A stretch of 64,000 nt of DNA, taken from NCBI RefSeq assembly GCF_003334785.1, contig NZ_QOWV01000009.1. One strand, 5' to 3'. The stretch comes from Escherichia coli. GTDB lineage: Bacteria > Pseudomonadota > Gammaproteobacteria > Enterobacterales > Enterobacteriaceae. The notes under the pieces are model-generated. The model was not told the origin of the DNA, did not search any database, and worked only from the letters and a program-made list of their open reading frames with translations. Positions within the stretch are counted from its first letter, which is position 1. Each line of letters starts with the position of its first letter. The position numbers and the translations under genes are program-made. Shown piece by piece: positions 49,347 to 49,390 of this stretch.

Positions 49347-49390
49347 TCCCTTAATTGTGCATAGTCGCAACAGCATGCACAATTAAGGGA
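49347..49390. repeat. perfect 16-bp inverted repeat with 12-nt spacer in the yajQ-panE divergent intergenic region
   Basis: TCCCTTAATTGTGCAT - AGTCGCAACAGC - ATGCACAATTAAGGGA read directly; right arm ends 44 nt upstream of the panE ATG. Confidence 0.8.

Follow-up and report, generated by a model that had tools for sequence, protein, structure and literature searches.

The leaders of the rnc and pnp mRNAs carry stem-loops that are cleaved by RNase III and that set mRNA half-life, with cleavage speeding decay. In leader hairpins of the adhE and T7 R1.1 type, a long intramolecular duplex is also cut, and processing yields an mRNA of greater stability or activity than its precursor; for adhE, cleavage uncovers an occluded ribosome-binding site. 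RNase III makes staggered cuts, leaving 2-nt 3′ overhangs. Overlapping divergent 5′ ends are another recognised class of RNase III substrate in Escherichia coli. Here, we describe a perfect palindrome between the divergent genes yajQ and panE, the evidence that it acts as RNA, its distribution among the Enterobacteriaceae, and how it compares with these systems.

The closest described system is the locus itself. Gordon, Cameron and Pfleger (mBio 2017, PMC5371410) compared RNA-seq coverage between wild-type cells and an rnc deletion mutant, and listed “Intergenic (panE-yajQ)”, at MG1655 coordinate 444573, among the top new RNase III sites. The coordinate marks the peak of a coverage ratio rather than a mapped cut, and read depth at that position is modest, with 96 reads in the deletion mutant versus 2 and 3 in the two replicates of the wild type. 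When in vitro transcripts were treated with purified RNase III, cleavage at the panE-yajQ site was scored “Y”; long duplexes were predicted at all verified sites. By 5′ RACE, several cuts were placed “near panE”, and the authors inferred the second cut of each pair. The half-life of yajQ mRNA was ~6 min in the wild type and ~3 min in the rnc mutant, a twofold difference, and this functional consequence comes from one study. The authors concluded that cleavage in the yajQ 5′ UTR stabilises yajQ mRNA, and proposed that a hairpin remaining at the 5′ end shields the processed mRNA. They also pointed out that, the hairpin being complementary, a similar structure is possible on the panE transcript (PMC5371410). 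A later review places yajQ among the mRNAs that are positively regulated by RNase III, and leaves the mechanism unresolved. Altuvia et al. 2018 (PMC6212723) state that they re-detected nine of the ten cleaved targets of Gordon et al.

We refer to the whole 64-kb stretch of E. coli DNA that was analysed as “the window”. Over the 2,551 bp compared, it matches the reverse complement of the E. coli K-12 MG1655 sequence with 100% identity, and a window position equals 493950 minus the MG1655 (NC_000913.3) coordinate. By this conversion, MG1655 444573 falls on window position 49377, which is base 3 of the palindrome's right arm. We also rebuilt the in vitro templates of Gordon et al. from their primer table. 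These span 49222-49986 (plus strand, panE sense) and 49573-48836 (minus strand, yajQ sense), and the repeat lies inside both. The palindrome is an already published, experimentally verified RNase III site (PMC5371410), not a new regulator-binding site. The original prediction had not recognised it as a named site; it indeed has no name, but it was described in 2017. The best explanation, and in our view a very probable one, is that transcription of the palindrome gives an RNA stem-loop with a perfect 18-bp stem, which RNase III cleaves. Others showed the rnc-dependent loss of coverage, the cleavage in vitro, and the altered half-life of yajQ mRNA, and mapped the yajQ start; the present analysis contributes the precise anatomy of the repeat, its single-copy status, the placement of the published coordinates within it, and the comparative pattern of RNA pairing. 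The palindrome has three parts:

49345-49362: left arm, TATCCCTTAATTGTGCAT; forms the 5′ side of the stem when transcribed in the panE sense, and the 3′ side when transcribed in the yajQ sense.
49363-49374: loop, AGTCGCAACAGC, 12 nt.
49375-49392: right arm, ATGCACAATTAAGGGATA; includes window position 49377, equivalent to MG1655 444573, the published RNase III site coordinate.

The original prediction described perfect 16-nt arms, TCCCTTAATTGTGCAT and ATGCACAATTAAGGGA, separated by a 12-nt spacer at 49347-49390 and ending 44 nt before the panE ATG. The sequence agrees with this description, and complementarity runs two bases beyond the 16-nt arms on each side, giving full perfect arms of 18 nt that end 42 nt before the panE ATG. 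The repeat sits in a 167-bp spacer between the divergent yajQ (ATG at 49267, minus strand) and panE (ATG at 49435). With up to three mismatches allowed, the arm sequence is found at just two places in the 64-kb window, both of them the arms of the repeat, versus 0.05 matches expected by chance; two matches were reached in none of 100 shuffles. In a scan for arms no more than 40 nt apart, the yajQ-panE repeat is the longest perfect inverted repeat of the window. The predicted RNA fold of 49330-49440 has an energy of −45.2 kcal/mol, with a z-score of −5.4 relative to shuffled sequences. On either strand, 18 consecutive Watson-Crick pairs are available, in line with the long and mostly unbroken intramolecular duplex, of about one and a half to two helical turns, expected of a leader stem-loop cleaved by RNase III. 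The stem is retained in both the minimum free energy (MFE) and centroid folds predicted for the yajQ leader and for the inferred panE leader.

The element is present at a single locus per E. coli genome. The surrounding 301-bp segment was found in 5425 of 5426 complete E. coli genomes, and a 58-nt core is identical in 5352 of those 5425 (98.7%). BLAST returns two “places” per genome because the palindrome matches itself on both strands. In a search sensitive to near full-length copies, no copies were found on genuine plasmids or in phages; the “plasmid” hits were to records of >1 Mb that are probably mislabelled chromosomes. An Rfam scan of 48700-49700 with E-values up to 10 gave two chance-level hits, neither on the repeat. 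A dispersed palindromic repeat (REP/BIME, ERIC, or MITE-like) is ruled out by the occurrence of one locus per genome, by the lack of plasmid or phage copies in that search, and by the lack of an Rfam match in that scan. With respect to a MITE-like origin, the insertion boundaries have no visible terminal inverted repeats and no convincing target-site duplication.

An intrinsic (Rho-independent) terminator is likewise ruled out, since the stem is A+T-rich, lacks a T-run, and lies between divergent genes. The original prediction had noted the lack of a U-tract and argued against a canonical terminator; consistent with this, no terminator-like site is called on either strand across 49100-49600. 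A consensus promoter scan of the same interval found no strong sigma-70-like site at the thresholds used.

Three further observations concern repeats and insertions in this region. First, an imperfect 21-nt inverted repeat (CTTATCAGGCCTACA...) with a REP-like appearance lies at 48679-48730, between the convergent 3′ ends of yajR and yajQ, and one paper places REP40a next to yajQ. Second, there is a weak, sub-threshold Rfam match to naRNA4 at 48720-48756. Third, in E. coli 13TMH22 (NZ_CP019256.1, 476696-477042), an IS1203 element (IS3 family) is inserted in the right arm directly after ATGCACAAT, at the equivalent of window 49383/49384. This insertion destroys the hairpin and parts panE from its upstream region, making the strain a natural disruption mutant.

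If the palindrome acts as RNA, it must be transcribed. The start-site table of Kim 2012 (PMC3415461) holds one E. coli yajQ start site, 267 nt before the ATG, with 29 reads and a −10 element of TACAAT. The 51-nt promoter string given for this site maps to window 49584-49534 on the minus strand, which puts the start at 49534, 100 nt inside the panE coding sequence. The repeat is therefore transcribed as part of the yajQ leader, since the mapped start lies beyond it. The same table, which covers the region, has no entry for an E. coli panE start site, and no yajQ or panE entries were found in the other start-site supplements searched. For Klebsiella pneumoniae, it places the panE (apbA) start site 148 nt before the ATG, with 56 reads, downstream of a −10 element of CATAAT within a conserved GCATAATACC box (PMC3415461). 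The E. coli and Klebsiella panE promoter strings are identical at 42 of 51 positions. By homology, the E. coli panE leader probably starts at 49311, is ~124 nt long, and includes the repeat. The features of the two transcripts are as follows:

49268-49534, minus strand: 5′ leader of yajQ, 267 nt; antisense to the first 100 nt of panE and to the panE ribosome-binding site, and then containing the hairpin.
49541-49546, minus strand: −10 element (TACAAT) of the distal yajQ promoter, within panE codons Tyr-Cys-Ser.
49299-49311, plus strand: putative panE promoter, with −10 element CATAAT at 49299-49304 and predicted start at 49311, by homology to the K. pneumoniae apbA/panE start.

Another sequence considered as the panE −10 element was a conserved GCGCTATACT box. 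This box resembles a −10 element and is kept in nearly all relatives (loci L003-L080). It was dropped as a candidate, as the mapped Klebsiella start points to the CATAAT further upstream. At the other end of panE, the MG1655 annotation has the panE stop region overlapping the start of yajL by 38 nt (MG1655 443604-443641; window 50309-50346), which suggests coupled expression of panE and yajL.

These transcripts bear on how the original prediction is read. It had offered the palindrome as either an operator for a dimeric regulator or a 5′-UTR hairpin. The hairpin is borne out by the published RNase III site and by the mapped yajQ leader; the operator is not, given the geometry of the repeat and the pattern of G·U pairs in Citrobacter (see below). 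Even the 5′-UTR reading was incomplete, naming only the panE leader when the demonstrated effect is on the yajQ leader, and missing RNase III.

Two smaller hairpins flank the palindrome:

49329-49343: GTCCTG-CAC-CAGGAC, a 6-bp hairpin; Escherichia-specific, adjoining the large hairpin, and standing in place of the GCGCTATACT box of other genera.
49404-49424, plus strand: small stem CACCCG / CGGGTG, abutting the panE Shine-Dalgarno sequence AGGAGG (49425-49430), with compensatory changes across the Enterobacteriaceae.

In the mechanism that we propose, yajQ is transcribed on the minus strand from the promoter within panE (start at 49534), and the transcript extends through the stem. RNase III would then cut the stem, removing the upstream 150-190 nt of the yajQ leader, part of which is antisense to the start of panE. 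The shortened yajQ mRNA would be about twofold more stable. The likely cause is that the new 5′ end would lie beside a GUCCUG-GUG-CAGGAC hairpin, which could hinder 5′-end-dependent decay; this is the RNA form of the hairpin at 49329-49343, which could be a 5′ stabiliser at or near the 5′ end of the processed mRNA. Such a 5′-protection model fits the twofold higher stability of yajQ mRNA in the wild type. Since the two arms match perfectly, panE-sense RNA forms the same stem. This stem would also lie in the panE leader if transcription of panE begins near 49311, by analogy with the Klebsiella homologue, and cleavage might then affect panE too.

An alternative route to higher yajQ expression would be the freeing of its Shine-Dalgarno sequence by cleavage, as for adhE. 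In the MFE structure of the full leader, the yajQ Shine-Dalgarno sequence (49271-49280) pairs with CCUCCUC at 49424-49432, the antisense copy of the panE Shine-Dalgarno sequence. The predicted probability that the yajQ sequence is unpaired is, however, low both before cleavage (0.18) and after (0.08-0.19), such that thermodynamic prediction alone gives no support to an adhE-like mechanism.

To ask where the element came from, we gathered 80 panE loci from other members of the Enterobacteriaceae. The repeat is missing from most of them, among these the loci of Salmonella, Citrobacter koseri, Enterobacter, Klebsiella, Kosakonia, and Kluyvera. In these repeat-less spacers, the conserved GCGCTATACT box runs directly into a conserved stem, CACCTG...CAGGTG, that abuts the Shine-Dalgarno sequence. 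C. amalonaticus also lacks the repeat. Judged by alignment of the loci compared, the element is an insertion confined to Escherichia and the Citrobacter freundii complex. As a separate observation, the yajQ-panE spacers of loci L003-L080 fall into two sequence types that cross genus boundaries. One type is found in Salmonella, C. koseri, and Enterobacter, and the other in Escherichia, the C. freundii complex, and C. amalonaticus. The hairpin insertion occurs in only part of the second type, which suggests recombination or repeated loss.

The stem that precedes the panE Shine-Dalgarno sequence is more widely distributed. It is kept in ~70 Enterobacteriaceae loci, most with CACCTG/CAGGTG. The compensated version, CACCCG/CGGGTG, is found in Escherichia and a few Citrobacter loci, and several species have the U·G intermediate, CACCTG/CGGGTG. 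This pattern suggests that the panE leader contains a conserved RNA stem at 49404-49424.

Within Escherichia, the large element is nearly invariant. E. albertii and E. whittamii have perfect 18-nt arms that are unchanged relative to E. coli; the differences in the 167-bp spacer, five in E. albertii and two in E. whittamii, all lie outside the arms. Within the element itself, the sole variation is that of E. whittamii, a G-to-A change at 49367 in the loop. A homologous, imperfect element occupies the same place in ten loci of the C. freundii complex. The E. coli left arm is nearly identical to that of Citrobacter, and the right arm differs exactly where needed for perfect pairing.

The imperfect Citrobacter elements are informative as to which molecule is under selection. 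In an alignment of eleven distinct versions of the element, a common structure of 21 pairs is 85% paired, versus 31-60% in slid controls. The non-Watson-Crick cells comprise 35 G·U, at seven pair positions, when read on the panE-sense strand, versus four A·C, whose counterparts on the yajQ-sense strand would be G·U. Because the sequences are related, these counts do not represent independent events, although their direction is consistent. Each Citrobacter version forms 16-18 of the 21 pairs as panE-sense RNA versus 13-16 as yajQ-sense RNA. Similarly, predicted folding energies range from −13 to −18 kcal/mol for panE-sense RNA versus −7 to −15 kcal/mol for the opposite strand, with each version folding better in the panE sense. 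The one-sided pattern of G·U pairs argues for selection on an RNA stem in the panE leader, not on a symmetric DNA operator.

The distal yajQ promoter also differs between lineages. Its −10 element is TACAAT in Escherichia and TGCAAT or TGCAGT, at synonymous codon positions, in most other genera. The antisense yajQ promoter inside panE is probably a recent gain. The TACAAT depends on a synonymous Cys codon, TGT (in the region of panE codons 33-38), and was seen in the three Escherichia sequences and in one C. amalonaticus locus (L051). We infer that the perfect palindrome, the TACAAT antisense promoter, and the 6-bp hairpin are co-occurring, lineage-specific changes in Escherichia that fit a long yajQ leader processed by RNase III. 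A more ambitious joint reading would be that, in Escherichia, an imperfect hairpin able to pair only as panE-sense RNA, of the kind that persists in the C. freundii complex, was made perfect, the antisense promoter was gained, and the GCGCTATACT box was replaced, yielding one element that serves as an RNase III site in two overlapping divergent mRNAs. This element would couple PanE (CoA pathway) to YajQ in an excludon-like manner, with cleavage detaching CCUCCUC from the yajQ Shine-Dalgarno sequence. We regard this full scenario as speculative and rather unlikely.

Other explanations of the palindrome place its function in a different molecule, or in none. The one that best survives is that the in vivo substrate of RNase III is a sense-antisense duplex of the overlapping leaders, with the palindrome being incidental or contributory. 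With yajQ starting at the mapped site inside panE (49534) and panE starting at ~49311, to the left of the repeat, the leaders would be complementary over 49311-49534 (~224 nt), and they would belong to the recognised substrate class of overlapping divergent 5′ ends. However, the in vitro assay of Gordon et al. was positive with a single transcript, which requires an intramolecular duplex, and the rnc-dependent dip in coverage is at one position within the palindrome, not over the whole overlap (PMC5371410). Moreover, the duplex needs a panE start to the left of the repeat, which in E. coli is placed by homology. We consider it unlikely that a leader-leader duplex is the substrate in place of the hairpin, although it may contribute in vivo alongside it.

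It is also conceivable that the repeat has no function, being the relic of a lineage-specific insertion or of a quasi-palindrome perfected by a template-switch mutation, and that it is cleaved simply because RNase III cuts any long duplex. The distribution is certainly patchy, with the element present in Escherichia and the C. freundii complex and missing from Salmonella, C. koseri, and C. amalonaticus. The right-arm differences, positioned exactly at the pairing positions, are a signature of quasi-palindrome correction, and E. coli 13TMH22 tolerates IS1203 in that arm. Template switching could indeed be the origin of the perfect palindrome. Nonetheless, the arms do not vary among the three Escherichia species, 98.7% of the 5425 E. 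coli genomes keep them unchanged, the strand-biased RNA stem of Citrobacter persists despite sequence change, and cleavage has a reported effect on yajQ mRNA stability (PMC5371410). Taken together, a functionless relic seems very unlikely.

The weakest alternative is an operator in the DNA, at which a dimeric or oligomeric transcription factor (possibly NtrC) would act on the divergent yajQ and panE promoters. Genomic SELEX with NtrC gave a peak (41%) between panE and yajQ, at 443,846 in older coordinates, which converts to approximately window 49328, and there are TGCAC-type motifs nearby (TGCACCA at 49333-49339) and in the arms (GTGCA at 49357-49361 and TGCAC at 49376-49380). An operator is nevertheless highly improbable: the NtrC box TGCACCAnnnTGGTGCA, a 17-bp inverted repeat, is not matched, since the motif spacings are 14-19 nt rather than ~7 and the arm pair is wrongly oriented; half-sites that are perfect over 18 bp and centred 30 bp apart do not resemble known operators, for which short half-sites, centred about one or two helical turns apart and conserved as DNA in relatives with the site, would be expected; the Citrobacter DNA palindrome is degenerate while RNA pairing on one strand is kept through G·U, which symmetry for DNA binding would not yield; the element is missing from most Enterobacteriaceae; and the SELEX peak marks a candidate binding region in the spacer.

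The reading that we favour, an RNA stem-loop cleaved by RNase III, has implications for how similar sequences are interpreted. Since a leader may begin within the adjacent gene, a perfect palindrome in the spacer of two divergent genes can function as RNA, a possibility that is easily overlooked from sequence alone. Our comparative additions are modest, and amount to a small case study of the birth of a post-transcriptional control element. The strand bias suggests a way to separate effects on panE from effects on yajQ: changes to the arms that leave G·U pairs on one strand and A·C on the other.

How does the yajQ-panE element compare with the systems described above? It is the same object as the panE-yajQ site of MG1655 reported by Gordon et al., with a long duplex available on both strands and cleavage by purified RNase III. 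To that description, we add that the anatomy is 18/12/18, that each genome has a single copy, that the origin is restricted to certain lineages, that pairing is strand-biased in Citrobacter, and that Escherichia has its own promoter and flanking hairpin. It resembles excludon-type overlapping divergent 5′ UTRs in that the ribosome-binding site of panE and its first 100 coding nucleotides are covered in antisense by the yajQ leader; it differs in that the overlap on the panE side hangs on an inferred start, and reciprocal regulation is here hypothetical. It resembles the rnc and pnp leader hairpins in being a leader stem-loop whose cleavage sets mRNA half-life, with the opposite outcome: yajQ mRNA lasts longer when RNase III is present. 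It is in this respect closer to the adhE and T7 R1.1-type hairpins, with which it shares a long intramolecular leader duplex and a processed mRNA that is more stable. Unlike adhE, yajQ has no clear predicted gain in Shine-Dalgarno accessibility, and a protective 5′ hairpin is proposed instead. Lastly, by comparison with adhE and T7 R1.1-type hairpins, the yajQ-panE stem is fully perfect and is common to two divergent genes.
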